From positions 1 through 61,337 of the forward strand of contig JALOSQ010000004.1 of NCBI GenBank assembly GCA_025458335.1: a DNA stretch of 61,337 nt. Reading direction: 5' to 3'. The notes beneath the pieces were generated by a model. That model made no database searches. It saw only the letters and a program-made list of their open reading frames with translations, and was not told the origin of the DNA. Of the stretch, positions 34,072 to 50,829 are shown one piece after another (the first letter of the stretch is position 1; the number at the start of each line of letters is the position of its first letter). The position numbers were made by a program, and so were the translations under genes. Origin of the DNA: Ideonella sp. (GTDB taxonomy: Bacteria; Pseudomonadota; Gammaproteobacteria; Burkholderiales; Burkholderiaceae_C).

Positions 34072-35049
34072 ATGCTCAACGTGTTCCGGCTCGCCAACGG
34101 CCGGCTCATCCAGGAGGAGTTCGACGACCTCGACACGCTGGCCGGGGTCAGGCCGGTGTGGGTCGACCTGGAGGCGCCCACGGCCGAGGAGAAGCGCTGG
34201 ATCACGCAGCGCTTCGGCGTGTCGATCCCGGCGGATGCGGTGGACGACGACCTGGAGGAGTCGGCCCGCTTCTACGAGGAAGACAACGGCGAACTGCACA
34301 TCCGCTCTGACTTCCTGATCGAGGGCGACGAGGGCCCGCAAGGGGCACGCCCGCGCAACGTGCGCGTGGCCTTCATCCTGAAGGAGGGGGTGCTGTTCTC
34401 GGTGCATGCCGAGGACCTGCCGGTGTTCCGGCTGCTGCGGCTGCGCGCGCGCCGCATTCCCGCCCTCATCGAGGACGCCAAGGACGTGCTGCTCAAGCTG
34501 TACGACGCCGACGCCGAGTACTCGGCCGACGCGCTCGAAGGCATCTACGACAGCCTGGACATGCTGTCGGCCCGCGTGCTGCGCGAAGACGTCAACGACC
34601 AGACCGCCGGCGAGGCGCTGGCCGCGATCGCCCGCGAGGAGGACCTGAACGGCCGCATCCGGCGCAACATGATGGACACGCGCCGCGCGGTCAGCTTCAT
34701 GATGCGCGCACGCATGCTCAACGCCGAGCAGTTCGAGGAGGCTCGCCAGATCCTGCGCGACATCGACTCGCTCGACTCGCACACGACCTTCCTGTCGGAC
34801 AAGATCAACTTCCTGATGAACGCGACGACGGGCTTCGTCAACATCAACCAGAACAAGATCATCAAGATCTTCTCGGTGGCCGCCGTCGGCCTGCTGCCGC
34901 CGACGCTGATCGCGAGCATCTACGGCATGAACTTCCAGTACATGCCCGAGCTGAGCTGGCGCCTGGGCTACCCGTTCGCGCTGGTACTGATGGCGCTGTC
35001 GGTGATTGCGCCGTTCGTGTACTTCCGGCGCAAGGGCTGGCTGCGCTGA
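34072..35049 (+). CDS. corA: magnesium/cobalt transporter CorA
   Basis: 325 aa from ATG 34072 (the track start 34048 is also possible). It has the canonical YGMNFQYMPEL motif and two C-terminal TM helices. Confidence 0.9.
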   Translation: MLNVFRLANGRLIQEEFDDLDTLAGVRPVWVDLEAPTAEEKRWITQRFGVSIPADAVDDDLEESARFYEEDNGELHIRSDFLIEGDEGPQGARPRNVRVAFILKEGVLFSVHAEDLPVFRLLRLRARRIPALIEDAKDVLLKLYDADAEYSADALEGIYDSLDMLSARVLREDVNDQTAGEALAAIAREEDLNGRIRRNMMDTRRAVSFMMRARMLNAEQFEEARQILRDIDSLDSHTTFLSDKINFLMNATTGFVNINQNKIIKIFSVAAVGLLPPTLIASIYGMNFQYMPELSWRLGYPFALVLMALSVIAPFVYFRRKGWLR

Positions 35050-35079
35050 GCCGTTCGCGGCCGCCCGGCGGCCTCGGCC

Positions 35080-35529
35080 TCAGGACCTCGCGCGGCGCTT
35101 GAGCCAGCGCATCAGCGCCCCGACGGCCGGCAGCTTCTCGTAGAGCTCCTCGGCGACGTCCCAGTAGTCGCGATGCATGGCGATGCGGCCCGTCGCATCG
35201 AGCCGCAGGTGCGAGGCGCCGCGCACCGCCTGCAACTCGGGCGTGAACCGCTTGAAGCGGAACACGAAGTCCCAGGTCAGGAAACACTGGTCACCCTCGG
35301 TCACGGCCTCGTGCACCACGAAGCGCGGCTCGTCGAGCGCGCGGTACATGTGCTCGAACACCTCGCGGATCGCGGGCACGCCCGTGACCTCGTTGAAGGG
35401 ATCCTTGAATCGGGCGTCGTCCGCATAGACCTCGCCGAGCCGCTGCAGCGCCGCAGGCGACAGCGACTCGAAGTAGTCGACGATCCGCGCCACGCGCGCA
35501 TCTGCCGGGGCCGGCCGCGGCGCGCTCAC
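35080..35529 (-). CDS. nuclear transport factor 2 (SnoaL-like) family protein, last gene of the lipid-modification operon
   Basis: GTG 35529 overlaps the SDR stop (GTGA). It is 149 aa with IVDYFESLSPAALQRLGEVYADDARFKDPFNEV...HRDYWD. Confidence 0.75.
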   Translation of the reverse strand: MSAPRPAPADARVARIVDYFESLSPAALQRLGEVYADDARFKDPFNEVTGVPAIREVFEHMYRALDEPRFVVHEAVTEGDQCFLTWDFVFRFKRFTPELQAVRGASHLRLDATGRIAMHRDYWDVAEELYEKLPAVGALMRWLKRRARS

Positions 35530-36299
35530 AGGCCGGTGGCCCGCCGTACCGCCTTGAAGTAAAGGCCGTCGGACAGGTGCTTGAGCGTCTTCAGCCAGAC
35601 CGTGAAGCGCTTGGGGAAGTGGATTTCGAACGAGCCGGCGCCCCATCCGGCGAGGATGTCGGTGGCGGCCTGCTTTGGCGTGATCAGCGCGGGCATCCGG
35701 AACTCGTTCTGAGCGGTCAGCGGCGTCTCGACGAAGCCCGGGTTGATCAGCGACACCGCCACCCCGCGGGGCTGCAGGTCGAGGTACAGCGTCTCGGCCA
35801 GGTTGATCAGTGCCGCCTTGGTCGGACCGTAGGCCAGGCCCTGTGGCAACCCGCGGTAGCCGGCCACGCTCGACACCAGGCTCAGGTGGCCCTGTCGCTG
35901 GGCCAGCAGCGTGGGGAGCACCGCATCGAGCAGGTGCAGCGCGCCGACATAGTTCACCTGGTCGTGCCGCAGCGCGTCGTCCAGGTCGAACGCGGTCGCG
36001 CGCATCGCCTTGTAGTAGCCGGCGCAGTACATGACCAGGTCGATGCGCCCGAAACGATCGACCACCTGCCGTGCCGCACCGCGCATCGCCTCGCGGTCGG
36101 TGGCGTCGACCGCGAGGCCGACCGCACCCGGGTGACCGCGCTCGAAGTCGGCCAGGGCCTCGGCGCTTCGGGCCGAGACGATCACCTGGGCGCCACGGGC
36201 ATGCAGTGCCTCGGCCGTCGCACGGCCGATGCCGGTGGAGGCCCCGACCAGCCAGCACACGCGGCCGGTCCAGTCGGTGATCGGGGGGTTGAGCGGCAT
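35526..36299 (-). CDS. SDR family oxidoreductase
   Basis: ATG 36299 gives 257 aa with the cofactor motif LVGASTGIGRA, NYVG and the catalytic YGPTKAAL (YxxxK). Confidence 0.88.
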   Translation of the reverse strand: MPLNPPITDWTGRVCWLVGASTGIGRATAEALHARGAQVIVSARSAEALADFERGHPGAVGLAVDATDREAMRGAARQVVDRFGRIDLVMYCAGYYKAMRATAFDLDDALRHDQVNYVGALHLLDAVLPTLLAQRQGHLSLVSSVAGYRGLPQGLAYGPTKAALINLAETLYLDLQPRGVAVSLINPGFVETPLTAQNEFRMPALITPKQAATDILAGWGAGSFEIHFPKRFTVWLKTLKHLSDGLYFKAVRRATGL

Positions 36300-36324
36300 G
36301 GTGCGGCGTCCTCTGGAGGGATGC

Positions 36325-36864
36325 TTACAGCTTGGTGAACGAGAGTGTGACCTCACCCAGGCGGATGCCGAACTTGCTCATCACGGCCTTGTTGAGCATG
36401 ACGCGCTCGTCGACCAGCCACATCCAGTCGTCGAACTGCACCTCGAACACACGCTCGCCCACCGGCAGGCGCAGCGTATACGCCCAGAAGAACGCGTTGC
36501 CCGAGGTCTGGCCGCTGGCGGTTCCGACCACGTCGTCGGCGGTGCCGGTGTAGCGGCCGTCACCCTGGTAGGTCAGGCGCCAGACGCGCCGCTCGGTCTT
36601 TCCGTCGCTGTACAGGAAGCGCTCGTCGAGCACGCCCTGGTTGCCCTCCCACCGGCAGTCCATGTCGACGACGAAGCGGCGCGCGACCTTGCCCGCGCGG
36701 TCCGTGAAGACGCCGTGGGCAATGAGCTTGCCGTTGAAGTACTGGCGCAGGTCGAGCAGGGGCTTTTCGCCCGCGTAGTCGGCCGGCGTGGGCGAGGAGG
36801 CACAGGCACCGAGCCCGAGCGCGGCGGTCGCGGCCGCGCCGGTCAGCAGGGTACGGCGTTGCAT
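36325..36864 (-). CDS. DUF3833 family lipoprotein (lipocalin-like)
   Basis: 179 aa with the lipobox LGLGAC, then LDLRQYFNGKLIAHGVFTDRAGKVARRF...WRLTYQGDGRYTGTADDVVG. Confidence 0.75.
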   Translation of the reverse strand: MQRRTLLTGAAATAALGLGACASSPTPADYAGEKPLLDLRQYFNGKLIAHGVFTDRAGKVARRFVVDMDCRWEGNQGVLDERFLYSDGKTERRVWRLTYQGDGRYTGTADDVVGTASGQTSGNAFFWAYTLRLPVGERVFEVQFDDWMWLVDERVMLNKAVMSKFGIRLGEVTLSFTKL

Positions 36865-36937
36865 GAGGTCTTCTCCTTCGGGGACAGGGTTTCGGGTCGC
36901 GGGGCAGTCGCGGACCGGACGGCTGGGTGCGCAGCGC

Positions 36938-38218
36938 TCAGGACGCCTCCGCGGGTCGGATCCACAGGACCCACAGCAGACCGACCGCCAGGCCCTTGAG
37001 CAGGCAGGGCAGCAGGCAGTACGCCAGCGTCAGCGCGGTGAGGGCCTCGTCGCTGCGGGCACCGGGCTCGTAGCCGAACCACTGCAGAGCCGGCAGGGCC
37101 AGGCCGGCGGCAAGCGCCAGGTTCAACTTGGTCGCGAAGTTCCACCAGCCGAAGTACGCCCCCTCGGCCTGGCGTCCGTGGCCGGCCCGCTGGATCACGC
37201 CGGCCAGCATCGCGCCCGGGATGGTCAGGTCCGCGCCGAGCGCCACGCCGCTGAGCACGCACACCGCCATGTAGGGCCAGACGTCACCGGTCCCCAGCAG
37301 CGCCGCCCAGATGAAGACGGCGATGGCCAGGACCATGCCGGCGAGCCAGGCCAGCGGCAGCCCGAAACGGCGCACGGCGCGAACCCACAGCGGGATCGAC
37401 AGGGCGCCCGCGGCGAAGTACCCGGCCAGGAACATCGGCTCGTAGGCCTTGGCGTCGAGGCGGTCGGCGATGAAGAACAGCACCAGCGTCGCCGGGATCG
37501 CGCTGGCGATGCCGTTCAGCAGGTAGATCCCGAGCAGCCTGCGGAACGCGGGCGTGCGGAACGGCAGGGCCATCGACACCGGCGGTTCGTCCGTCAACGA
37601 CGGCGCGGGCGCGGGCGCGGCTCGCAACACCACGACGCCGGCAAGCAGCAGGGCGGCGAACACCACGGTGGTCACCGAAAGCCCGGCGACCGACGGCAGA
37701 ACGCTCGCCACCAGCACGCCGGCCAGCGACATCCCCTCGCGCCAGGCCACCACGCGGGCGCGCTGTGGGGCGTCGCCGCCGAGCCGCGCGCCCCAGGCCT
37801 GGTGCACCACGGTGACGGTGCTGTAGCTGAGGTAGGTGACGGCGAGCATCGCCGCGCACCAGGCCAGCAGCGCCCCGGATCCCTGGACCGGGGGGAAGAA
37901 CAAGGCCCGGAAGCCCAGCGCCAGGACAACGGCGGCCAGGACCGTGATGGTCCACGCCCGCAGGGCGCCACGGCCGAGCAGCGCATCGGCCCACCGGCCG
38001 ATCAGCGGGTCGGCGAACGCATCGAGCAGTCGCGCTCCGAGCAGGACCAGCCCCAGCGCCGCCAGCGGAACGCCGAACGCCTGCGCATAGTGGTTGGGCA
38101 GGATGACGTACAGCGGCAGCGCGACGAACGCCAGCGGCAGCCCGAGCGCGCCATATCGCAGGCCGCCGAGCGGTCGGTCGTCGGGCCACGCACCGGCCCA
38201 GGCCGCGCTCACGGCCAC
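36938..38218 (-). CDS. MFS transporter (glycoside-pentoside-hexuronide-like)
   Basis: 426 aa with about 12 TM helices, LRYGALGLPLAFVALPLYVILPNHY...DAFADPLIGRWAD. Confidence 0.8.
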   Translation of the reverse strand: MAVSAAWAGAWPDDRPLGGLRYGALGLPLAFVALPLYVILPNHYAQAFGVPLAALGLVLLGARLLDAFADPLIGRWADALLGRGALRAWTITVLAAVVLALGFRALFFPPVQGSGALLAWCAAMLAVTYLSYSTVTVVHQAWGARLGGDAPQRARVVAWREGMSLAGVLVASVLPSVAGLSVTTVVFAALLLAGVVVLRAAPAPAPSLTDEPPVSMALPFRTPAFRRLLGIYLLNGIASAIPATLVLFFIADRLDAKAYEPMFLAGYFAAGALSIPLWVRAVRRFGLPLAWLAGMVLAIAVFIWAALLGTGDVWPYMAVCVLSGVALGADLTIPGAMLAGVIQRAGHGRQAEGAYFGWWNFATKLNLALAAGLALPALQWFGYEPGARSDEALTALTLAYCLLPCLLKGLAVGLLWVLWIRPAEAS

Positions 38219-38243
38219 GCCCGTGCCGACGCCGTGGCGTCGC

Positions 38244-38828
38244 TCACGAACTGACGCCGAGCAGCGACTGGCGCAGGCCCGGCTCCGAGGTGGTGGGGCT
38301 CAGCCAGATGCCGAAGAAGCGCCGGGCGAACTCGGGGTCGGCGATCTCGCCGCGCAGGTTCGCGTTCACGAAGAAGCGCGCGGCCGCGCCCGGCCGGTGC
38401 ACGCCGGTGATGCGGTCCCCGGCCGTGACGTCGGGGAACACGCCGCGCATCGCCTCGAGCCAACGGGCGCCCTGCTCGGGGCTGATCCCGGGCACGCGCT
38501 GCATCTCCTCGAGCGAGCGCTCGGCGATCAACCGGCCCACCAGGCGCCGGGCATAGACGAGCTCCAGCGCGAGCGGGGCGGCACCGTACGCGGTTGGCTC
38601 GAACCCGTCGGCCACCCACAGGCGCGCGTCGTACACCGACAGGCCCAGGAAGCGCAGGCGTCCCTGCCCCCGCAGCAGTGCGCCGGGCAGCTCGGACTCG
38701 ATCTCGCGCGGTCGGGCGACGGTGGCCGGTGCATTGGCGAGCGACGGCAGGCTCGCCGCCGCGAGCGGCAGGGCGGCCAGCGCGGCCAGGGCGCGGCGAC
38801 GCTCGCGCAGGGTCGGGACGTGGGGCAT
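38244..38828 (-). CDS. chalcone isomerase-like family protein (secreted/periplasmic)
   Basis: ATG 38828 in the frame of track ORF 38244..40250 gives 194 aa. It has a signal peptide and then RLRFLGLSVYDARLWV...LALELVYARRL...FFGIWLS. Confidence 0.7.
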   Translation of the reverse strand: MPHVPTLRERRRALAALAALPLAAASLPSLANAPATVARPREIESELPGALLRGQGRLRFLGLSVYDARLWVADGFEPTAYGAAPLALELVYARRLVGRLIAERSLEEMQRVPGISPEQGARWLEAMRGVFPDVTAGDRITGVHRPGAAARFFVNANLRGEIADPEFARRFFGIWLSPTTSEPGLRQSLLGVSS

Positions 38829-38899
38829 GAGGGGCTCCAGCGGAAGGATCGAAGTCGCGACGGGTGGCCGGCGGGACGGGTCGACGCGGGCCGGCGGGT

Positions 38900-40153
38900 T
38901 CAGGCGGCGTGCGAACCGCCCGCCCGGTGGCGCAGCGTGAACTGCACGACATCGGTGCTGCCGGTCTCGAACGCGGCCTCGCAGTACGCGAGGTAGAACT
39001 CCCAGATCCGCACGAAGCGGGTGTCGAAGCCGAGCCCGCGCACCGCCGCCTCCTCGCGCAGGAACGCGTGGCGCCAGCGCTTGAGCGTCTCGGCGTAGTC
39101 GGGGCCGAAGGCGAACTCGTTGACCACCTCCAGGCCCGAGGCTTCGGCGGCCGCGCGGAAGCGCGAGGGGCTGGGAAGCAGCCCGCCCGGAAAGATGTAC
39201 TGCTGGATGAAGTCGGTCGAGCGGACATAGCGCTCGAACAGGTCGTCGCGGATCGTGATCGACTGGATGCACGCCGTGCCACCGGGCTTGAGCACCGCGG
39301 CGATCGTCTGGAAGAACGAGGGCCAGTACTCGCGGCCGACCGCCTCGAACATCTCGATCGAGGCGATCGCGTCGAATCGCTCGCCGCTCGACGCGAGGTC
39401 GCGGTAGTCCTGCAGGCGCAGGTCGGCCTGATCGGCGAGCCCGGCGCCGTCCATGCGCTGCCGCGCGTAGTCCAGCTGCTCGGTGGACAGGGTCACGCCC
39501 GTCGTGTGCGCGCCGAACTCGCGCCCCGCGAGCTCGGCCAGGCCGCCCCAGCCACAGCCGATCTCCAGCACCCGGTGTCCCGGGCGGACGTCGCACTCGA
39601 GCAGGGCGCGTCGGACCTTGGCCCACTGCGCCTGCGCGAGCGGCCGGCGCCGGTCGCCCTCGAACCAGGCGCTCGAGTACGACATGGTCGGGTCGAGCCA
39701 CAGGCGGTAGAAGTCGTTGCCGAGGTCGTAGTGCGCCTGGATGTTCTTGCGGCTGCCGCGACGCGAGTTCCGGTTCAGCAGGTGCTTGACGCGGTAGAGC
39801 AGCGAGCCCCACCAGGACCCGTAGACGACGGCCTCCACGTCTTCGCGGTTGCGCAGGAAGAACGTCAGCAGCGCCGTCAGGTCGGGCGTGGTCCAGTCGC
39901 CATCGAAGAAGCTCTCGGCGAACCCGATGTCGCCCGACTTGAGGGCCGCGCTGCACACGTTCCAGTTGAGCAACCGGATGGCGGCCCGCGGCTCGGCGCC
40001 CGGCGTGCCGAAGTGCATCGACTCGCCGCTGGGCAGCTGCACGTCGAGCGAGCCGTTGCGCACGCGGCGCAGGAGCGAGATCACGGCGCGCGCGGGTGCG
40101 GGTGCACCGGCGGGCAGGGTGAATCCGGTGGCCGAAGCGGTCTGGTGGGTCAT
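38900..40153 (-). CDS. cyclopropane-fatty-acyl-phospholipid synthase family SAM-dependent methyltransferase
   Basis: ATG 40153 gives 417 aa with HYDLGNDFYRLWLDPTMSYSSAWF, the SAM motif VLEIGCGWGGLA, and IEMFEAVG. Confidence 0.9.
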   Translation of the reverse strand: MTHQTASATGFTLPAGAPAPARAVISLLRRVRNGSLDVQLPSGESMHFGTPGAEPRAAIRLLNWNVCSAALKSGDIGFAESFFDGDWTTPDLTALLTFFLRNREDVEAVVYGSWWGSLLYRVKHLLNRNSRRGSRKNIQAHYDLGNDFYRLWLDPTMSYSSAWFEGDRRRPLAQAQWAKVRRALLECDVRPGHRVLEIGCGWGGLAELAGREFGAHTTGVTLSTEQLDYARQRMDGAGLADQADLRLQDYRDLASSGERFDAIASIEMFEAVGREYWPSFFQTIAAVLKPGGTACIQSITIRDDLFERYVRSTDFIQQYIFPGGLLPSPSRFRAAAEASGLEVVNEFAFGPDYAETLKRWRHAFLREEAAVRGLGFDTRFVRIWEFYLAYCEAAFETGSTDVVQFTLRHRAGGSHAA

Positions 40154-40155
40154 GT

Positions 40156-40983
40156 TCAGCGCGTGACGAAGGAAGCGGGGGGCTCGGGCTTGCGGTGGAA
40201 GGGGACCTTGCGCCACCACAGCTGCAGAGCTTGCCAATGGATGCGGGCAATGACCCCCAGGGTCATCAACGGCATGCGGGCGGCCAGCGAACGCAGGTTC
40301 CGTGCCGTGGCCGGGCGGAGCTCGCCACTCACGCTGGTCGTGAGCAGCGGCCCCTCGGCATCGTCGTGCTCGATCCGGACGACCGTTCGACCGACAGTCT
40401 CGCGGTCCGACGCCGGCGCAAGGCGAGCCAGGTCGGTGCGCAGGAAGCGGAAGCGGTAGTCGCCCTCGACATCGCAGAACGGCGACACGTGGAACACCTT
40501 GCGGGCGCGGCACTCCACGCCGAAGCGAAGGTCCGGCCCCTGCAACAGGTAGCAGTGGCGCTCGCCGAAGGTGTTGTTCACTTCGGCGACGATGGCGGCC
40601 AGGCTGCCGTCGCGCCGATGCGCGTACCAGAAGCTCACCGGCTTGAACGCATAGCCGAGCACGCGCGGGTAGCAGTGAAGCCATACCTCGCCGTCGGCAT
40701 CGGTCACGCCTTCGGCGGCGAGCATCGCTTCGAGCCAGGCGAGGCTGTCGCTGCGGCCGTCGCCGTGGTCGGCGTCATGAAAGGCGATCAGCGCCCGGCG
40801 GTTGCGGGCCAGCGCGCCGCCGGCATCCGGGTCGTCGCGCCAGCGGCGCATCGGCAGCAGCACGAAGAACGTCGGATAGGCGAACCCGTGTCGCGCAGGC
40901 CGCAGGCGCTGGTGGCGCACCTCGCCCTGCCCGATCAGGGCCTGCACGGCCGGCGCGTCGACGGTGGGGGGCGCCTGCGTCAT
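40156..40983 (-). CDS. DUF1365 domain-containing protein
   Basis: ATG 40983 overlaps the upstream stop (ATGA). It is 275 aa with GEVRHQRLRPARHGFAYPTFFVLLPM...FHDADHGDG...YPRVLGYAFKPVSFWY. Confidence 0.8.
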   Translation of the reverse strand: MTQAPPTVDAPAVQALIGQGEVRHQRLRPARHGFAYPTFFVLLPMRRWRDDPDAGGALARNRRALIAFHDADHGDGRSDSLAWLEAMLAAEGVTDADGEVWLHCYPRVLGYAFKPVSFWYAHRRDGSLAAIVAEVNNTFGERHCYLLQGPDLRFGVECRARKVFHVSPFCDVEGDYRFRFLRTDLARLAPASDRETVGRTVVRIEHDDAEGPLLTTSVSGELRPATARNLRSLAARMPLMTLGVIARIHWQALQLWWRKVPFHRKPEPPASFVTR

Positions 40984-42290
40984 GCCGTGAGGGCCTCGGC
41001 GGCCCGCGACGAGGGACGCCCGGCGTCGCGATCCTGCATGGCACGCACCACCGTCAGGGCCGACAGCAGTCCGTCCTCGTGGAAGCCGAAGCGCGTCCAG
41101 GCCCCACAGAACCACGTGCCGCGCCCACCCTGCAGCGCGGGCAACCGGCGCTGCGCGTCGATCGCGGCCAGGTCGAACACCGGGTGCTCGTAGTCGTACT
41201 CGCCGATCACGGACTCGGGCCGTGGCTCCCGGACCGGGTTGAGCGAGACGATCACGTCCGTGCGGAAGGGCAGCGGCTGCAGCTTGTTGATCCAGTAGTG
41301 CAGGCACACCCCCGAACGCTCCGCATCGTGGCGGGCGGCGCGCTCGTAGTTCCAGGCGGCCCACGCCAGACGACGGCGCGGCATCAGCGCGGTGTCGGTG
41401 TGCAGCACCGCGCGGTTGCGGTGGTAGCCGATCGCACCGAGCACTGCGCGCTCGTCGGGGGTGGCATCGGCCAGCAGCGCCAGCGACTGGTCGCTGTGGC
41501 AGGCCATCACGACGTCATCGAAGCGCTCCGTGCCGGCATCGGTCTCCACGGCGATCGGACCCGCGCCATCGTCCAGGCGCCTGACCGAGCGCACCGGCGT
41601 GCGCAGTCGGGCATCGGCAATCGACTCGAGCAGGCGCACGACGTAGTGGCGGGCGCCGCCCTTGACCGTCCACCACTGCGGCCGGTCGTTGACCTGCAGC
41701 AGCCCGTGGTTGTGACAGAAGCGGATCAGGGTCGAGATCGGGAAATCCAGCATCTGCGAGGTCGGGCAGGACCAGATGCAGGCGATCATCGGCAACAGGT
41801 AGCCGTCGCGGAACGCGCTTCCGAAGCGCTCGCGCTCGAGGAAGGCGCCGATCGGCATCCGCAGACGCTCCTCGTCACTGGCTCGGGCGATCTCCGTCGT
41901 GACACGGTTGAATCGCAGCAGGTCGGACAGCAGGCCCCAGAACGACGGCCGCAGCAGGTTCGAGCGCTGCGCGAACACCGTGTTGAGGCTCGAGCCGCTC
42001 CACTCGAAGTCATCCTGCGGCACCTGCACCGAGAACGACATGTCCGAGCGGGCGCGCTCGACACCGAGTTCGCCGAACAACCGGATGAGGTTCGGGTAGG
42101 TGCGCTCGTTGAAGACCAGGAACCCGGTGTCGACACCATGCGTGACGCCATCGAGCGTGACGTCCACCGTGTTCGTGTGTCCGCCGAAGTACTCGCCGGC
42201 CTCGAACAGCGTGACCCGATGCCGGGCGGACAAGGCGTGCGCGGCCGCCAGGCCGCTGATGCCGGATCCGATGACCGCGATGCGCCTCAT
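40980..42290 (-). CDS. NAD(P)/FAD-dependent oxidoreductase (amine-oxidase / phytoene-desaturase-like), first gene of the operon
   Basis: 436 aa with the dinucleotide fold IAVIGSGISGLAAAHAL and FEAGEYFGGHTNT. GAGG lies 6 nt upstream of the ATG. Confidence 0.88.
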   Translation of the reverse strand: MRRIAVIGSGISGLAAAHALSARHRVTLFEAGEYFGGHTNTVDVTLDGVTHGVDTGFLVFNERTYPNLIRLFGELGVERARSDMSFSVQVPQDDFEWSGSSLNTVFAQRSNLLRPSFWGLLSDLLRFNRVTTEIARASDEERLRMPIGAFLERERFGSAFRDGYLLPMIACIWSCPTSQMLDFPISTLIRFCHNHGLLQVNDRPQWWTVKGGARHYVVRLLESIADARLRTPVRSVRRLDDGAGPIAVETDAGTERFDDVVMACHSDQSLALLADATPDERAVLGAIGYHRNRAVLHTDTALMPRRRLAWAAWNYERAARHDAERSGVCLHYWINKLQPLPFRTDVIVSLNPVREPRPESVIGEYDYEHPVFDLAAIDAQRRLPALQGGRGTWFCGAWTRFGFHEDGLLSALTVVRAMQDRDAGRPSSRAAEALTA

Positions 42291-42393
42291 CGCGGCCTCA
42301 GACCGTCACCGACCTGCGAGCGGCGCGCAGGCCGCCCAGCGAAGCCCGACCCGCGAGGGGGAGAAGAAAAGCCGTCGCAGGGCGCCCGAGGGC

Positions 42394-42423
42394 GAAGGAG
42401 GGAGGGAGGGAGGAGGAGGAGAA
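42394..42423. repeat. 30-nt uninterrupted polypurine/polypyrimidine tract
   Basis: The plus strand reads GAAGGAGGGAGGGAGGGAGGAGGAGGAGAA. A second 17-nt purine tract, GAGGGGGAGAAGAAAAG, lies at 42355-42371. Both lie in the untranslated region upstream of the 40980..42290 gene. Confidence 0.9.
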
Positions 42424-42652
42424 CCACCCCCGGATTGCATCCGGCGTCGCCGGAAGTCCCTGCAACGAAAAACCGTTCGGCCTGCATCCGGAGCGCCGCG
42501 ATCCTGAGACGCCGCGCCGGCCACACCGTATGCCTCCATGGATCGCGGTGGTCGAGCGAAGTTCCGTCGGCCGGCACTCGAGGAGCGCTGGCGCGCTGCC
42601 GACGCGGGTGACAGGAGGCTGACTCATGAACAAGACTATATCGTTCATTGCG

Positions 42653-42666
42653 ATACTGATCAGTAT
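42653..42666. promoter_or_regulatory. candidate operator: perfect 14-bp palindrome in the divergent control region
   Basis: ATACTGATCAGTAT is a perfect palindrome. Its centre, TGATCA, lies 16 nt from a minus-strand TATAGT (plus coordinates 42635-42640), so it overlaps a plausible -35 for the minus-strand operon. Confidence 0.4.
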
Positions 42667-42903
42667 ACAGCGAACTGCAGAACCCCGGAAACCCGCTGAA
42701 TCGGAAGGCGAGACCGCGCGCTGGCCATGGTCAAGTGTCCACGAGGTCTGACGGCCAGGGAATCATCCAAGACACGCGACTGTCACGGACAGTTGACTGA
42801 GCATCCCTGACTTGATTGCGTCCTAGGCAAACTTGGCTCGGCACCCTATAGTAGGCATGCGAAGCCTCATGAACAAGCTTTTGTCTAAGACAGAAATAGG
42901 TCG

Positions 42904-43902
42904 TTGGCTCCGCTGCTTCCGCCAGTGAGCGGTCTCTTGCCAGTAGTCCCCACCCCAGAGGCTGCCTTGAACAACCGGGCCGAAATCAAACCCATCACGT
43001 TGTCGATCGCCGCGGTCGAACGCGACACCGGTTTGAGCAAAGACACCCTTCGAGTGTGGGAGCGCCGATACGGCTTCCCGTCGCCCGAGCGCGACTCGAT
43101 CGGCGAGCGGGCGTATCCGCTGGAGCAGGTCGAGAAGCTTCGCATCATCAAGCGGCTGATGGATGCGGGGCATCGCCCGGGACGCATCGTGCCGATGGCG
43201 ATCGACGAGTTGCAGCGGCTCACCGAGAGCACCGTCGATTCCCCGCAGCGGGTCGAGGAGTCGAGCGGGGCACCGGACTTGCGCATGTACGTGGACCTCG
43301 TCCGCGAACACGACATGGATTCGCTACGGCGCCAGCTGACGCAGGCGCAGGTCCGGCTCGGGCTCGGCCGATTCGTCACCGAGGTCATCGCGCCGCTGAA
43401 CACCCGGGTCGGTGATGCCTGGATGCGCGGCCAGATGGAGATCTTCGAGGAGCACATGTATACCGAGGCGGTGCAGGTGGTCCTGCGCAGCGCGATCGGC
43501 AGCGTGCCGGACGCCGCCCGCTCGGGAAGGCCGCGCGTGCTGCTGACCACCTTCCCCGGCGAACCCCACGGTCTGGGTCTGCTGATGGCCGAGGCCATCT
43601 TCGCACTCGAGGGCGCTCGCTGCCTTTCGCTCGGCGTCCAGACGCCCATCTGGGACATCGTGCTGGCCGCAGGCGCCCACCGCGCCGACATCGTCGCGCT
43701 CGGGTTCACCGGCTGCATGAACCCGAACCAGGTTGTCGAAGGCCTGGGCGAATTGCGCTCGAAGCTCCCACGGCAGATGGAAATCTGGGCGGGTGGCACC
43801 GCGCCGGTGCTGCATCGCCGCACCGTCGAGGGGGTCGTGCCGATCGCCTCGCTCGCCGCCGTTCAGCCCGAAGTCCAGCGCTGGCGCGAAGCGGCTGTCT
43901 GA
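42904..43902 (+). CDS. MerR-family transcriptional regulator with a cobalamin-binding domain (CarH/LitR-type B12 photoreceptor candidate)
   Basis: 332 aa (the track start 42904 is TTG, so the start is uncertain). The MerR HTH is LSIAAVERDTGLSKDTLRVWERRYGFPSP. The helical bundle carries W-x9-E-H (DAWMRGQMEIFEEH). The Rossmann B12 domain carries E-x-H-x-x-G (GEPHGLG). Confidence 0.85.
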   Translation: MAPLLPPVSGLLPVVPTPEAALNNRAEIKPITLSIAAVERDTGLSKDTLRVWERRYGFPSPERDSIGERAYPLEQVEKLRIIKRLMDAGHRPGRIVPMAIDELQRLTESTVDSPQRVEESSGAPDLRMYVDLVREHDMDSLRRQLTQAQVRLGLGRFVTEVIAPLNTRVGDAWMRGQMEIFEEHMYTEAVQVVLRSAIGSVPDAARSGRPRVLLTTFPGEPHGLGLLMAEAIFALEGARCLSLGVQTPIWDIVLAAGAHRADIVALGFTGCMNPNQVVEGLGELRSKLPRQMEIWAGGTAPVLHRRTVEGVVPIASLAAVQPEVQRWREAAV

Positions 43903-44032
43903 AGCGCGCCGTCCGGCCCCGCCGGCCCGTGTCGGTGGCCTGATGGCCCCTGGGCCGGCGAGCCCGTGGTTTGCACGGCTGGAGTGCGCCGCGGGTCGCG
44001 CCTACACTCGCGCGCTCGATCCGGACAAACCC

Positions 44033-44911
44033 ATGCTGTACCCCGAACTCTTCAAGCAGCTCGAAGCCGTGCGTTGGAACATGGACACGGACATCCCGTG
44101 GTCCTCGTTCGATGCCAGCCTCCTTTCCGAGGAGCAGGCGCGCACGATCAAGATGAACGCCATCACCGAGTGGGCGGCGCTGCCGGCCACCGAGATGTTC
44201 CTGCGCGACAACCGCGATGACAGCGACTTCTCGGCCTTCATGAGCGTGTGGTTCTTCGAGGAGCAGAAGCACTCGCTGGTGCTGATGGAGTACCTGCGTC
44301 GCTTCCGACCGGAACTCGTCCCGTCCGAGCAGGAGCTGCACGAGGTGCGTTTCGAGTTCGACCCGGCCCCGGCCCTCGAGACGCTGATGCTGCATTTCTG
44401 CGGGGAGATCCGGCTGAACCACTGGTACCGGCGCGCCGCCGAGTGGCACACCGAGCCGGTCATCCGCCACATCTACGAGACGCTCGCACGCGACGAGGCC
44501 CGTCACGGCGGCGCCTACCTCCGCTACATGAAGCGTGCGCTCACCCGCTGTGGCGACGAGGCTCGTGCGGCGTTCGCCAAGGTGGGCGTCCTGATGGCCA
44601 GCGCGCGCCGCACGGCGCAGGCGTTGCACCCGACCAACCTGCACGTCAACGCGCAACTGTTCCCGCGCGACACGGTGCAAAGCCGCATCCCCGACCCGCA
44701 GTGGCTCGAGCATTGGCTGGATCGGCAGATCCAGTTCGACAGCAGTTGGGAGACGAAGGTCGTCGAGCGCATCCTGCACAACCTCGGCCTGCTGTTCGAG
44801 CGCAGCTTCGGCAGCGTGCAGGAGCTCAATCGCTACCGCAAGGAAATCACGGCGCGCCTCGCCTCCGCCGGCGAAGCGGCGCCGACGGGTGCCCGGCCGC
44901 AGCCGGCCTGA
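44033..44911 (+). CDS. ferritin-like diiron-carboxylate protein (acyl-ACP-desaturase-like fold)
   Basis: ATG 44033 gives 292 aa. The diiron ligand pattern is E...ExxH...E...ExxH: TEMFLRD, FFEEQKHSL, CGEIRLNHW and ARDEARHGG. Confidence 0.75.
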   Translation: MLYPELFKQLEAVRWNMDTDIPWSSFDASLLSEEQARTIKMNAITEWAALPATEMFLRDNRDDSDFSAFMSVWFFEEQKHSLVLMEYLRRFRPELVPSEQELHEVRFEFDPAPALETLMLHFCGEIRLNHWYRRAAEWHTEPVIRHIYETLARDEARHGGAYLRYMKRALTRCGDEARAAFAKVGVLMASARRTAQALHPTNLHVNAQLFPRDTVQSRIPDPQWLEHWLDRQIQFDSSWETKVVERILHNLGLLFERSFGSVQELNRYRKEITARLASAGEAAPTGARPQPA

Positions 44912-44958
44912 CCCTCTCCCGACCTCAGCCGCGCGGCCTGCGCCTGACGCGCCGGCCC

Positions 44959-45612
44959 TCAGCCCTTCGCCGATGCAAACGCCTGCGCCGACTTGCGGTC
45001 GGCCGTCACGCGCTGCGCCGACGGCCGCTCGCCGACCCGCTTCAGGTAAGGCTTGAGGTCGATCCCCGCGGCCGCGAGCAGATCCTCGCCGTACACGGCC
45101 TTCGTGGCCATCGACACCACCGGCAGCGCGGGCCAGGCGCAGCAGTCGGCCATGGTGAACGTGTCGCCGGCCACGTAGGGCGCGAACTTCGCCAGGCGCC
45201 GGTAGGCCGCGATGTTCTTCTCGAGCTGCTTGCGCACCCGTGCGGCGTGCGACTCGCTGATCTCGCCCCCGAAGAAGGCCTTGAGGTAGAGCTCTCGTGC
45301 GACGAGTTCCAGGTGCAGGTCCGTGAACACGCACAGCTCGCGGACCTTGGCCGCCGCCCACGGATCGCTCGGGAGCAAGGGCGGATCGGGCCAGCGCGCC
45401 TCCAGGTACTCGACGATCACGGAGCTCTCGCACAGCGGCCCCTGGTCAGTCCGGATGAACGGGATCTTGCCCAGCGGCGTGGCCGACAGCACGGCCTCGT
45501 CGCGCAGACCGCTGCCCACCAGTTCCTCGCTGAAGGGGATGCCCTTCTCGAGCAGCGCCAGCTTGACCTTGTTGTAGTAGTTCGAAACCGCGAAACCGCA
45601 CAGGACCAGCAC
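44959..45612 (-). CDS. glutathione S-transferase family protein
   Basis: 217 aa with SNYYNKVKLALLEKGIPF...PLGKIPFIRTDQGPLCESSVIVEYLE and a GST C-terminal helical domain. Confidence 0.85.
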   Translation of the reverse strand: MLVLCGFAVSNYYNKVKLALLEKGIPFSEELVGSGLRDEAVLSATPLGKIPFIRTDQGPLCESSVIVEYLEARWPDPPLLPSDPWAAAKVRELCVFTDLHLELVARELYLKAFFGGEISESHAARVRKQLEKNIAAYRRLAKFAPYVAGDTFTMADCCAWPALPVVSMATKAVYGEDLLAAAGIDLKPYLKRVGERPSAQRVTADRKSAQAFASAKG

Positions 45613-45653
45613 AGGCGCCTCCGTTGCGCAAAGCGCCAGTCTACGATCGCGCC

Positions 45654-46172
45654 ATGCCTGCCGACACGAGCCTTCGCCCGCCCACGCCGCCGACGCCCAC
45701 CCCTGCCTTCGTCGACAAGCTGTGCCGACGGGAAGACCTGTCGCGCCGCCTGCAGGCGCTGCCTCGGCCGATGGTGTTCACGAACGGCGTCTTCGACCTG
45801 CTCCATCGCGGCCACGTCACGTATCTCGCGCAGGCCCGTGCGCTCGGCTCCAGCCTGGTCATCGGGCTGAACAGCGACGCCTCGGCCCGGGGGCTCGGCA
45901 AGGGGCCGGACCGCCCGTTGAACCGCGAGCTGGACCGCGCCTGCGTGCTCGCCGCACTCGAGTCGGTGAGCCTGGTGGTGCTGTTCGACGAGCCGACGCC
46001 GGTCGCGCTGCTCGGCGAGATCCGGCCGGACTGGTACGTCAAGGGCGGCGACTACGACATCGAGACGCTGGCCGAGACCGCGCTCGTGCGCACCTGGGGC
46101 GGGCAGGCCTGCGCCATCGCCTTCGTCGACGGGTACTCGACCACCTCCCTGGTCCGCCGCATCCGGGGATGA
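45654..46172 (+). CDS. hldC: D-glycero-beta-D-manno-heptose 1-phosphate adenylyltransferase (RfaE domain II)
   Basis: ATG 45654 gives 172 aa with the cytidylyltransferase motif FTNGVFDLLHRGHVTYL and VKGGDY. Confidence 0.88.
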   Translation: MPADTSLRPPTPPTPTPAFVDKLCRREDLSRRLQALPRPMVFTNGVFDLLHRGHVTYLAQARALGSSLVIGLNSDASARGLGKGPDRPLNRELDRACVLAALESVSLVVLFDEPTPVALLGEIRPDWYVKGGDYDIETLAETALVRTWGGQACAIAFVDGYSTTSLVRRIRG

Positions 46173-46211
46173 ACCGGGCACGGCCCGGGTCGACCAGACG
46201 GCGGGCCCGGC

Positions 46212-47123
46212 TCAACCCGCCGTGCGAGGTCGCCCTGCGAGGTTGACCACGGCGATGCCCACGCACACGGCCACCAGGGCCACCACCAGCCGCGGCGTGA
46301 GCGGCTCGTCCAGCAGGACCACCCCAGCCACGAGGCCGAACACGGGCGTGAGCAAGGTGAAGGCCGACAGGCGGGTGGCGGGGTAATGGCGCACCAGCCA
46401 GAACCATGCCAGGTAGCTGGCAAACGTGACGACCACCGCCTGGAACGCCATCGCCGACCACGTCAGCGGCGTGAGCTCGAGCCGTGGGCGTTCGCCCGCG
46501 AGGACGGCCAGCGCGCCGAGCACGACGGCCGACACCGCCAGCTGGTACAGCAGGGTCTTCTCGGGCACGGTCGTCGCGAGGCGGGTGGCCCGGATCACGA
46601 GGGTGGTGAGCCCCCACAGCACGGCGCCGGCGACGCCCAGCGCGTCGCCGATCCACTGGTTCGGGCCGGTCGCGGGGGCAGCGAAGCTTTCGGCGAACGC
46701 CCAGGCCACCCCGGCGAATGCGAGCACCAGGCCGGCGAGCTGCGCAGCGCCCAGGCGCTCCTGCCGCGCGATGAAGGGCATGCCCAGCGCGACCACGAAG
46801 GGGGCGAGGTACACGAAGACGACCATCCGCGAAGCGCTGGTGAACTGCAGCCCGACGAAGATGCAGGCGAACTCCACCGCGAACAGAACGCCGACGAGCA
46901 CACCGGCCCGGCCGCTGCCGTCGCGGCTGAAAAGCGCGATGCCGCGCCACGCCGCCCAGGCCCACAACAGCAACGCGGCAACGGCCGAGCGCACCGCCGC
47001 CTGGGTCAGGGGCGGGACCTCGGCCATCGCGACCTTGGCGGCCACCTGGTTGAGGCCCCACAAGGCACAGCAGCCGATCAGAAGGACGACCGCCGTGGCG
47101 TCGAGCTGGGCTCGCCGCTCCAT
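46212..47123 (-). CDS. DMT-superfamily (EamA-like) transporter
   Basis: ATG 47123 gives 303 aa with 10 TM helices and two EamA-like halves. Confidence 0.8.
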   Translation of the reverse strand: MERRAQLDATAVVLLIGCCALWGLNQVAAKVAMAEVPPLTQAAVRSAVAALLLWAWAAWRGIALFSRDGSGRAGVLVGVLFAVEFACIFVGLQFTSASRMVVFVYLAPFVVALGMPFIARQERLGAAQLAGLVLAFAGVAWAFAESFAAPATGPNQWIGDALGVAGAVLWGLTTLVIRATRLATTVPEKTLLYQLAVSAVVLGALAVLAGERPRLELTPLTWSAMAFQAVVVTFASYLAWFWLVRHYPATRLSAFTLLTPVFGLVAGVVLLDEPLTPRLVVALVAVCVGIAVVNLAGRPRTAG

Positions 47124-50672: not shown

Positions 50673-50829
50673 GCTGGATGGAGAGGGTCAGGCCGTGGCG
50701 TCGGCCCGGCCGGCGCCGACAGCGGCTCGAGGCCACACCCCCCGTGGAGGCCTGGGATGGCATCGGGGCCGGGCAGGCCCCCCGTCTCGAGGCGAGGTCT
50801 GCCTGCCGCGTTGCGGTCTCACTGTCGTC

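Follow-up and report, generated by a model that had tools for sequence, protein, structure and literature searches.

A Burkholderiales ufaD-ufaO-type lipid-modification operon with a candidate structured leader RNA and a divergent B12-type regulator

The window analyzed here, a 61,337-nucleotide stretch of DNA from Ideonella sp. (contig JALOSQ010000004.1 of assembly GCA_025458335.1), contains an operon of eight genes, G1 to G8, which opens with a flavin adenine dinucleotide (FAD)-dependent oxidoreductase, a DUF1365 protein and a cyclopropane fatty acid (CFA)-synthase-family methyltransferase. The operon is real and conserved, and it is the Burkholderiales version of the known light- and singlet-oxygen-induced ufaD-ufaO cluster for furan fatty acid (FuFA) synthesis. 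The original prediction had named it the best candidate in the window for an undescribed system, a claim that does not hold given the published sigmaE-ChrR operon of Rhodobacter sphaeroides, the LitR cluster of Pseudomonas and VC1122 of Vibrio cholerae. As a whole, the locus is probably best explained as a conserved photo-oxidative-stress lipid-modification cluster around ufaD and ufaO, in which core chemistry and accessory lipid handling are combined with control by LitR, an extracytoplasmic function (ECF)-type promoter and an RNA. That RNA, the leader upstream of G1, is the part of the locus for which we found no description anywhere, and comparative analysis makes it a strongly supported structured-RNA candidate.

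Gene organization and conservation of the operon

Genes were called from lists of open reading frames (ORFs), third-position G+C content by frame and inspection of start codons; the ORF lists are crowded with shadow frames because the window has a G+C content of about 72%. All eight genes were called on the minus strand between 42290 and 35080 (Table 1), in agreement with the tight same-strand packing first described, and the three junctions named at that time are exact: the ATGA overlap of G1 and G2 (-4 nt, 40983-40980), the 2-nt gap between G2 and G3, and the GTGA overlap of G7 and G8 (-4 nt, 35529-35526). The remaining spacings are 71 nt (G3/G4), 25 nt (G4/G5), 73 nt (G5/G6) and 25 nt (G6/G7), and terminator-like sites within the operon occur at the level of shuffled sequence (4 versus 3.4 expected). 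From this coupling and from conservation, we infer that G1 to G8 are carried on one transcript. Pfam confirmed each of the eight domain assignments that had been made, and no NCBIfam equivalog was reached by any operon protein.

Table 1. Features of the operon, its leader region and the divergent genes in the window
Feature	Position	Strand	Remarks
G1, UfaD-like FAD-dependent fatty-acyl desaturase	42290..40980	minus	436 aa; Pfam Amino_oxidase 3e-18, NAD_binding_8 3e-14
G2, UfaO-like DUF1365 protein	40983..40156	minus	275 aa; Pfam DUF1365 2e-79; ATGA-coupled to G1
G3, CFA-synthase-family S-adenosylmethionine (SAM) methyltransferase, candidate UfaM	40153..38900	minus	417 aa; Pfam CMAS 6e-83
G4, exported chalcone-isomerase-fold / fatty-acid-binding-fold protein	38828..38244	minus	194 aa; Pfam Chalcone_3 1e-8
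G5, MFS_2 (GPH-type) transporter of the major facilitator superfamily (MFS)	38218..36938	minus	426 aa; Pfam MFS_2 2e-50
G6, DUF3833 lipoprotein	36864..36325	minus	179 aa; Pfam DUF3833 3e-68
G7, short-chain dehydrogenase/reductase (SDR)	36299..35526	minus	257 aa; Pfam adh_short 1e-39
G8, SnoaL/NTF2-like protein	35529..35080	minus	149 aa; Pfam SnoaL_2 8e-18; GTGA-coupled to G7
Structured CU-rich RNA, ufaD leader	42474..42363	minus	112 nt, three helices
RNA helix P1	42468-42458/42382-42372	minus	closes the element
RNA helix P2	42453-42449/42445-42441	minus	short hairpin
RNA helix P3	42434-42425/42394-42385	minus	encloses the CU loop
CU loop	42424-42395	minus	30 nt, near-invariant; UUCUCCUCCUCCUCCCUCCCUCCCUCGUUCG
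U-run after P1	42371-42363	minus	
ECF-sigma-type promoter-like site, GGAACTT-N16-TCCA	42565-42539	minus	consensus match only; upstream of the RNA
Double dyad, ACTGATCAGT ... ACGATATAGT, around a -10-like hexamer (CGCAAT/TATAGT)	42666-42635	minus	candidate operator and sigma70-type promoter
CarH/LitR-type MerR regulator with B12-binding domain	42967..43902	plus	divergent; start probably TTG 42967
Ferritin-like di-iron protein	44033..44911	plus	292 aa; downstream of litR; weak Pfam FA_desaturase_2 and AurF matches

To describe the wider distribution of the operon, we scanned genomes with a diverse DUF1365 alignment and kept the best 80 loci, all of which belong to Burkholderiales relatives; gene order was counted in the 58 genome loci with at least 6.5 kb downstream of G2. 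This neighborhood comparison across Burkholderiales, which the original prediction had proposed, returned the identical order G1 to G8 in 43 of the 58 loci, with G1 to G3 present in essentially all of them and individual accessory genes (G4 to G8) in 50 to 57. The closest DUF1365 proteins are those of Rubrivivax, Rhizobacter, Piscinibacter and other Sphaerotilaceae. By RefSeq annotation, plasmid pAZKH of Azoarcus sp. KH32C (Rhodocyclales) carries the same eight genes together with a divergent MerR-family gene, and its operon proteins are 44-57% identical to those of the window.

Annotated clusters of other classes share subsets of the accessory genes. The Paracoccus cluster joins sigma and anti-sigma genes to the order fasciclin-FAD-DUF1365-CFA synthase-MFS-SDR-TspO, Salinivibrio has MerR-phrB-NTF2-SDR-FAD-DUF1365-CFA synthase-DUF2878-chalcone-isomerase-like-DUF3833, and Pseudoalteromonas has sigma-ChrR-phrB-NTF2-SDR-FAD-DUF1365. 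Acinetobacter, Streptomyces, Ensifer and Caballeronia have other versions, in which DUF1295, lipocalin or an additional CFA-synthase gene is present. Every one of the eight families turns up again with ufaD/ufaO in the alpha- and gammaproteobacteria, and orthologues of the accessory families lie within the ufaD/ufaO clusters of Paracoccus, Salinivibrio, Pseudoalteromonas and Acinetobacter, beside ChrR/sigma, MerR and photolyase genes. The set of eight is thus one of the arrangements taken by a modular cluster of wide distribution.

Core genes and predicted furan fatty acid chemistry

The R. sphaeroides operon RSP1091-1087 comprises five genes under sigmaE-ChrR control (Lemke et al. 2020, PMC7380195). 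Of its products, UfaD (RSP1091) is a phytoene-desaturase-like FAD enzyme and UfaO (RSP1090), a DUF1365 protein, closes the furan ring by inserting O2; the CFA-synthase-like methylase UfaM is RSP2144, unlinked to the operon, and in-frame deletions of RSP1089, RSP1088 and RSP1087 (402, 186 and 245 aa) leave the fatty-acid profile unchanged (PMC7380195). In Rhodopseudomonas palustris the genes ufaD-ufaO-ufaM are contiguous (RPA2571-2569) and sufficient for synthesis of 9M5-FuFA (PMC7380195), a membrane-bound scavenger of singlet oxygen and radicals. Singlet oxygen induces DUF1365 and CFA-synthase genes in Chlamydomonas too. By analogy with the related Paracoccus operon, and from position and length, RSP1089 was identified as the probable CFA-synthase-like gene and RSP1087 as the probable SDR gene; G7 matches RSP1087 (245 aa) by position and length.

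The first reading of the FAD enzyme as UfaD-type is borne out by its domains and by its position. G1 pairs an NAD/FAD Rossmann domain with an amine-oxidase or phytoene-desaturase-like domain (Pfam, NCBIfam), gives weak phytoene-desaturase/HpnE-type matches in NCBIfam, and lies immediately upstream of the DUF1365 gene, to which it is coupled. A G1-type gene adjoins DUF1365 in the 80 loci and in most of eight annotated clusters, and the equivalents of G1 in eight clusters of other orders and classes are 40-59% identical to it. G2 matches PF07103 at 2.1e-79 over residues 18-268 of 275 and is thus a full-length DUF1365 protein, the domain that defines UfaO. This family is large (5361 clusters at 50% identity, E<=1e-3), and a sequence search with G2 among PDB structures gave nothing significant. 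The original prediction had named UfaO as a CFA-synthase-like methylase and had counted DUF1365 among the members with no assigned role. Since UfaO is itself the DUF1365 protein RSP1090 (PMC7380195), the first statement is mistaken and DUF1365 is among the best-assigned members of the operon; the second statement stands for the chemistry of the five accessory genes.

G3 has a CMAS domain over residues 132-405 (Pfam) and is akin to the two-domain CFA synthases 5z9o, 7qos and 6bqc over residues 24-412, so that it presents the CFA-synthase-family methyltransferase with N-terminal lipid-binding domain that would be looked for in a UfaM. It falls below the cut-off for the E. coli-type Cfa equivalog (244 versus 400 bits, NCBIfam). 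No second CFA-synthase-like gene is present in the whole 61-kb window. In every cluster sampled, G3 shares 37-54% identity with the gene that follows ufaO; second copies of the family found elsewhere reach only 26-30%. Its placing as a UfaM or as an RSP1089-type protein depends on positional evidence, the gene after ufaO being UfaM in R. palustris and RSP1089 in R. sphaeroides.

Second CFA-synthase-family genes were seen in a Caballeronia (L002), an Ensifer (L206) and an Acinetobacter (L208) locus, often beside DUF1295, lipocalin or sigma/ChrR genes. Their low identity to G3 and this company suggest two functionally distinct methylase types within clusters of these kinds.

The content and order of the ufaD/ufaO cluster uphold the earlier view of a lipid-modification module related to the Rhodobacter Ufa pathway. 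By homology to the reactions of R. sphaeroides and R. palustris (PMC7380195), G3 would use SAM to methylate the cis-vaccenoyl chains of phospholipids to 11Me-12t-18:1, G1 (UfaD) would desaturate this product to 11Me-10t,12t-18:2, and G2 (UfaO) would close the furan ring with O2 to give 9M5-FuFA.

Accessory genes

Searches of PDB sequences with the DUF3833 and chalcone-isomerase-like proteins returned nothing significant, and fold prediction was therefore used for G4 and G6. G4 carries a signal-like N-terminus (RRRALAALAALPLAAASLPSLA), and its AlphaFold2 model (predicted local distance difference test, pLDDT, 90.1) is matched in Foldseek by chalcone isomerases, CHIL proteins and the Arabidopsis fatty-acid-binding proteins FAP1 (4doo) and FAP3 (4dol), at E-values of 1e-7 to 2e-6 and TM scores of about 0.55-0.6. 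G6 has the lipobox LGLGAC, in which Cys21 is invariant, and is modeled by AlphaFold2 as a ten-strand barrel (pLDDT 88.5) with Foldseek matches to BFA1, the FABP-like Ycf58 (3bdr), CpeS, nitrobindin and lipocalins. These likenesses to FAP, chalcone isomerase and the calycins (lipocalin, FABP, nitrobindin) are likenesses of fold at 7-17% sequence identity and do not amount to family membership. They agree with the prediction of two exported or lipid-binding-fold proteins, both G4 and G6 having ligand-binding folds. A literature search on DUF3833 found nothing relevant to its function.

For G5, the only PDB relatives at E<=0.01 are the MFSD2A sodium-dependent lysophosphatidylcholine symporters (7oix at 1.6e-9, 7mjs, 7n98); this is a sequence match limited to the C-terminal half, and transport and ligand are putative for G5. 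Orthologues of the accessory proteins are found in ufaD clusters of other classes, including those of G5 in Paracoccus (33% identity), of G6 in Salinivibrio (42%) and of G7 in Paracoccus (43%), Salinivibrio (38%) and Pseudoalteromonas (33%). Genes of the NTF2 family, to which G8 belongs, adjoin the SDR gene in Salinivibrio and Pseudoalteromonas and are found near the cluster of Acinetobacter.

The results for G4, G5 and G6 support, without proving, the handling of a hydrophobic product at or beyond the inner membrane. As judged from fold and location, these three proteins, with G5 as a transporter of the inner membrane, would move or hold such a product on the periplasmic side, with FuFA-containing lipids, lysolipids and oxidized lipids as candidate cargo. 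For G7 and G8, the suggestion is a redox/isomerase pair in the cytoplasm, whose substrate may be a side product or an oxidized product.

A structured CU-rich RNA upstream of ufaD

The gap between litR and ufaD measures 450-1200 bp in most loci, and a nucleotide search with the gap of the window returned one block at 74-92% identity in 26 loci whose proteins are only about 62% identical. Comparative alignments and RNAalifold resolve this block into the three-helix element of Table 1. Pairing on the named structure is found in 92.7% of cells, compared with 38-46% when the partners are slid, and compensatory changes occur in 22 of the 26 pairs; the observed values were reached by no shuffle. A covariance model gives the window copy a score of 107.7 bits and detects the element in 45 of 82 loci, each with a single copy on the sense strand and just upstream of ufaD; no further copy appears elsewhere in the 1.4 Mb of genome loci. 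A pattern scan of metagenomes added at least 120 further loci with the element. All 100 of the metagenome loci that were searched match the RNA model over its full length, at up to 115.6 bits, and covariation of the helices was confirmed on this independent set.

Minimum-free-energy folding of the whole 356-nt leader behaves like that of shuffles (z = 0.64), and the element is revealed by comparative analysis only. No Rfam family, including RF02344, matches at E<=1 over 34500-46500, and a literature search on C-rich or RpoE-dependent small RNAs (sRNAs) in Burkholderiales found nothing relevant. A 116-aa ORF in the leader (42298..42648) was rejected as a gene, for it shows no third-position GC bias, gives marginal translated matches and is conserved at the nucleotide level.

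The element is placed close to ufaD wherever that gene follows it. In genome loci the ufaD start lies 22-138 nt past the RNA end, and among the metagenome matches listed it lies 36-135 nt past the matched pattern in 76 of the 105 loci with room downstream, so near that no space is left for a separate ufaD promoter. About 29 of these 105 listed loci keep the RNA without ufaD, the next gene being convergent and 65-130 nt away. At such stand-alone loci the convergent gene is GST-like or CorA, the divergent di-iron and LitR genes remain, and the RNA copies score as high as any, have the clearest U-runs (TTTTT) and retain the ECF-type promoter motif.

Seven loci (L028, L008, L023, L066, L011, L013 and L052) have an extra GC-rich hairpin and T-run between the RNA and ufaD, a terminator of a kind that the window does not have. 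Locus L011 also has a tandem repeat, CATGAAGCC in four copies, at the start-codon region of ufaD, which creates several in-frame ATG codons.

Promoter motifs and the divergent B12-type regulator

Two motifs recur upstream of the RNA. Of 157 upstream regions, 69 contain the ECF-type motif GGAAC[TC]-N16-19-(GTCT/GTCA/CTCCA/CTCTA), where shuffles give 1.4; most copies lie 50-80 nt before the RNA element, and in many loci the distance is within 50-90 nt. The second pattern, a -10-like hexamer between two copies of ACY-N4-RGT, occurs in 63 of 150 such regions where shuffles yield 0.33, an enrichment of about 190-fold. LitR is a putative binder of the ACY-N4-RGT dyads. Membership of a sigmaE-ChrR regulon is not indicated for the window, which has neither adjacent ECF sigma and ChrR genes nor a TGATC-N18-CGTAT-type promoter upstream of the operon. 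A promoter of the ChrR-sigmaE type was accordingly rejected: TGATC-N-CGTA is missing upstream, and the pattern has a single match, on the opposite strand within G7, as expected by chance.

Some ECF-type copies read GGAACTT-N16-GTCTGA, like RpoE/AlgU-type promoters. A further motif, TTCTTTAC, occurs about 25 nt upstream of GGAAC in loci L024, L028, L008, L021, L011, L063, L012 and others and is not obvious in the window. In other taxa, ChrR adjoins the cluster.

The divergent B12 photoreceptor gene of the original prediction has the expected domains of the CarH/LitR kind, with Pfam matches to MerR_1, B12-binding_2 and B12-binding at 1.5e-12, 6.3e-9 and 1.7e-5. CarH proteins are recognized by the motifs Wx9EH and ExHxxG, and both are present in the translation, as W-MRGQMEIFE-EH and, for the His-on motif, as GEPHGLG. 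The protein scores below the CarH equivalog cut-off (NF052513, 116.5 versus 400 bits) and is a relative within the family, not an equivalog. A litR gene is divergent in 29 of the 58 related loci, and the Azoarcus copy is 48% identical to that of the window.

The di-iron protein encoded beyond litR has a distant likeness to acyl-ACP desaturases (PDB 1za0, DesA2, E 0.003). It is found in 40 of the 58 loci with a median identity of 84%, compared with about 62% for the operon proteins, and its gene is kept beside the RNA element in loci that have no operon. Beyond it lies a convergent glutathione S-transferase (GST) gene, and a convergent CorA gene lies downstream of G8. Otherwise the window carries ordinary chromosomal genes (hemB, ruvAB, hprK, dapB, leuS, holA, thiL, pgpA, glnE, yhdP). 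The YhdP-family protein is encoded on the plus strand at 50164-55014, 8 kb away (Pfam YhdP, E 9.5e-233).

Relation to known systems

The clusters of R. sphaeroides (RSP1091-1087) and R. palustris (RPA2571-2568, ufaD-ufaO-ufaM-RPA2568) share with the window the opening order of FAD desaturase, DUF1365 and CFA-synthase-family genes, and the R. sphaeroides operon would also share its SDR gene, if position and length identify RSP1087 correctly. Induction under photo-oxidative conditions belongs to the R. sphaeroides cluster and is a predicted common trait. The systems differ in control, which is by ChrR-sigmaE in Rhodobacter and, in the window, would involve a divergent B12-type LitR and an ECF-type promoter. 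Compared by description with the Rhodobacter proteins, the window operon also differs in its exported chalcone-isomerase-fold protein, MFS transporter, DUF3833 lipoprotein and NTF2-like protein, and in its structured CU-rich leader RNA.

A light-inducible LitR cluster of Pseudomonas contains phrB, an SDR gene, an FAD oxidoreductase gene, ufaM and hypothetical genes (PMC9758184). PplR1 of P. putida and the PmlR1 region of P. mendocina are given as light-inducible LitR clusters (PMC9758184). In V. cholerae, the putative CFA synthase VC1122 is induced by blue light under ChrR and MerR control (PMC5241685). Like the window, the Pseudomonas and V. cholerae clusters set a MerR/LitR-family regulator beside SDR, FAD oxidoreductase, CFA-synthase-like 'ufaM' and hypothetical genes; they are induced by light, with a repressor on dyads that overlap the promoter, to which the candidate dyads found in the window sequence would correspond. 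The Pseudomonas regulators are class II LitR proteins, which have no full B12 domain and a LOV protein as partner, unlike the regulator of the window. Their operator is TGTACA-N12-TGTACA (PMC9758184), whereas that of the window would be ACY-N4-RGT, twice. The window further differs from the Pseudomonas clusters in gene order and in having no photolyase gene.

With the class I CarH/LitR photoreceptor-repressors, which use adenosylcobalamin (AdoB12), the regulator of the window shares the MerR helix-turn-helix, the four-helix bundle and the Rossmann B12-binding domain. It differs from them in its putative control of a lipid operon instead of carotenoid genes. The CarH operator consists of 11-bp repeats, from which the candidate operator of the window would also differ.

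Among known RNAs, the closest parallel is with CcsR1-4 and the 'cuckoo' sRNAs of Rhodobacterales and Rhizobiales (RF02344; PMC4615179, PMC8034643), which share the anti-Shine-Dalgarno-like CCUCCUCCC in an unpaired loop; this motif is contained in the loop of the window RNA, UUCUCCUCCUCCUCCCUCCCUCCCUC. A link to singlet oxygen or stress responses and a terminator-like 3' end are further features of these sRNAs and putative ones of the window RNA. The cuckoo RNAs are sets of 2-4 adjacent simple hairpins, each with the motif and with no multiloop, whereas the window RNA is a three-helix multibranch structure with one 30-nt loop. With a single motif-bearing loop in a multibranch, and with no match to RF02344, it does not have the cuckoo architecture. 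It also differs in belonging to Burkholderiales and in its fixed place beside ufaD or the di-iron gene.

Proposed control and alternative explanations

In the control that we propose, the divergent, B12-dependent regulator of the CarH/LitR kind would probably keep a sigma70-type promoter between the two dyads repressed in the dark, and an ECF-type promoter would act downstream of that promoter. Both promoters would transcribe the 112-nt RNA with its anti-Shine-Dalgarno-like CU loop, ending in a stem and U-run; read-through past the RNA would express the operon, and the terminated RNA would probably act in trans as an sRNA. The arrangement of the loci makes it most likely that the RNA is independently terminated and that read-through feeds the operon, a purely cis-acting attenuator being a serious rival. 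An sRNA that doubles as a leader is probable because the RNA persists in some metagenome loci that have no co-oriented downstream gene. Only tentatively, and with less than even confidence, do we extend this to a joint proposal: a new RNA family of Sphaerotilaceae and Comamonadaceae, under ECF-sigma and light control, would serve both as a trans-acting sRNA with an anti-Shine-Dalgarno seed and as a terminator-gated operon leader, and would be joined to a route of MFS transporter, fatty-acid-binding-fold protein and calycin-type lipoprotein that moves FuFA-containing, lyso- or oxidized lipids to or from the periplasmic side.

Several points weigh against the account of the operon and its control given above. 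The orthology of G1 and G2 to UfaD and UfaO is argued from family, synteny and proxies such as Paracoccus, and co-transcription and the RNA ends are predictions from sequence. G3 could be of the RSP1089 type, dispensable for FuFA in R. sphaeroides, and not of the UfaM type. FuFA may not be a target of the accessory genes at all, since single deletions of RSP1087-1089 gave no fatty acid methyl ester phenotype. On the side of control, the U-run after P1 is short in operon loci (3-5 U), and the stem before it, P1, closes a multibranch structure, as intrinsic terminators seldom do. The dyad copy of the window has one mismatch to the ACY-N4-RGT pattern, and the dyad motif is seen as well in loci without a litR gene detected close by, which makes the dyad-binding protein uncertain. 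The window holds no ECF sigma gene and no anti-sigma gene.

These points bear on rival explanations of both the RNA and the operon. If the CU-rich RNA were purely cis-acting, as a ufaD attenuator or translational leader with a Rho utilization (rut) site or a masked Shine-Dalgarno region, the stand-alone copies would be relics of operon loss. The constant position of the RNA in genome loci, immediately upstream of ufaD on the sense strand with no space for a separate promoter, speaks for this explanation, as does the preference of Rho for unpaired, YC-rich RNA, which is well established; the stand-alone loci, moreover, are of two or three context types and may reflect few events. We nevertheless consider it less likely than not, given that about 29 of the 105 listed metagenome loci keep a full-scoring RNA before a convergent gene only, that the strongest U-runs and an upstream ECF-type motif are found in those same copies, and that a near-invariant loop of 30 nt far exceeds what is needed to mask one ribosome-binding site. 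The element might alternatively act as DNA, with no RNA structure, through H-DNA, an i-motif or a quadruplex of the G-rich strand (GGGAGGGAGGGAGG) that senses guanine oxidation. The CU tract is homopyrimidine throughout and includes C3 repeats, and guanine is the base that singlet oxygen preferentially oxidizes. An action at the level of DNA is nonetheless highly improbable, and was set aside, because the three flanking helices covary with many compensatory changes and contain strand-specific G-U pairs: P3 begins with a U-G pair in 31 of 38 and in 84 of 96 sequences, which on the other strand would be C-A mismatches.

As for the operon, G1 and G2 might act on a branched, cyclopropane or unsaturated substrate to make a modified lipid other than FuFA, which the accessory proteins would process or export; G3 would then be of the RSP1089 type, and the true UfaM would be elsewhere in the genome or absent. 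RSP1089 is unneeded for FuFA in the R. sphaeroides operon and UfaM is unlinked there (PMC7380195), several clusters have two CFA-synthase-family genes only 26-30% identical to each other, and G3 falls below every NCBIfam equivalog cut-off. Against this, in R. palustris it is UfaM that directly follows ufaO, and the three genes are enough for FuFA synthesis (PMC7380195), G3 is the only such gene in the window, and the gene after ufaO is 37-54% identical across classes; a product other than FuFA thus appears unlikely to us. We regard as more doubtful still the idea that the five accessory genes are unrelated passengers sharing a stress-induced promoter with ufaD, ufaO and the methylase. Deletion of RSP1087, RSP1088 or RSP1089 leaves fatty acids unaltered (PMC7380195), and accessory content differs among taxa (DUF2878, DUF1295, lipocalin, TspO, fasciclin), as such passengers might; yet genes of the SDR, NTF2, MFS, chalcone-isomerase-fold and DUF3833 families accompany ufaD/ufaO repeatedly in three proteobacterial classes (alpha, beta and gamma), several junctions are start/stop overlaps or 25-nt gaps, and the folds are all of a hydrophobic-ligand type.

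Significance of the cluster

The three-enzyme pathway to FuFA is known, and no function has been assigned to the genes that accompany it (SDR, NTF2-like, MFS, chalcone-isomerase-fold and DUF3833). The recurrence of these accessory families over three proteobacterial classes, with three products that look like carriers of lipids or a transporter of lysolipids, reduces the range of hypotheses to those in which lipids are handled outside the cytoplasm. Several cultured strains that carry the full gene set, among them Piscinibacter sakaiensis 201-F6, Caldimonas caldifontis, Acidovorax delafieldii DSM 64 and Azoarcus sp. KH32C, can be used as test systems. Through the leader RNA, the FuFA pathway is connected with an ECF-type stress promoter and with a B12 photoreceptor locus. 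If it does act in trans, this RNA would be to betaproteobacteria what the photo-oxidative-stress sRNAs are to Rhodobacter.

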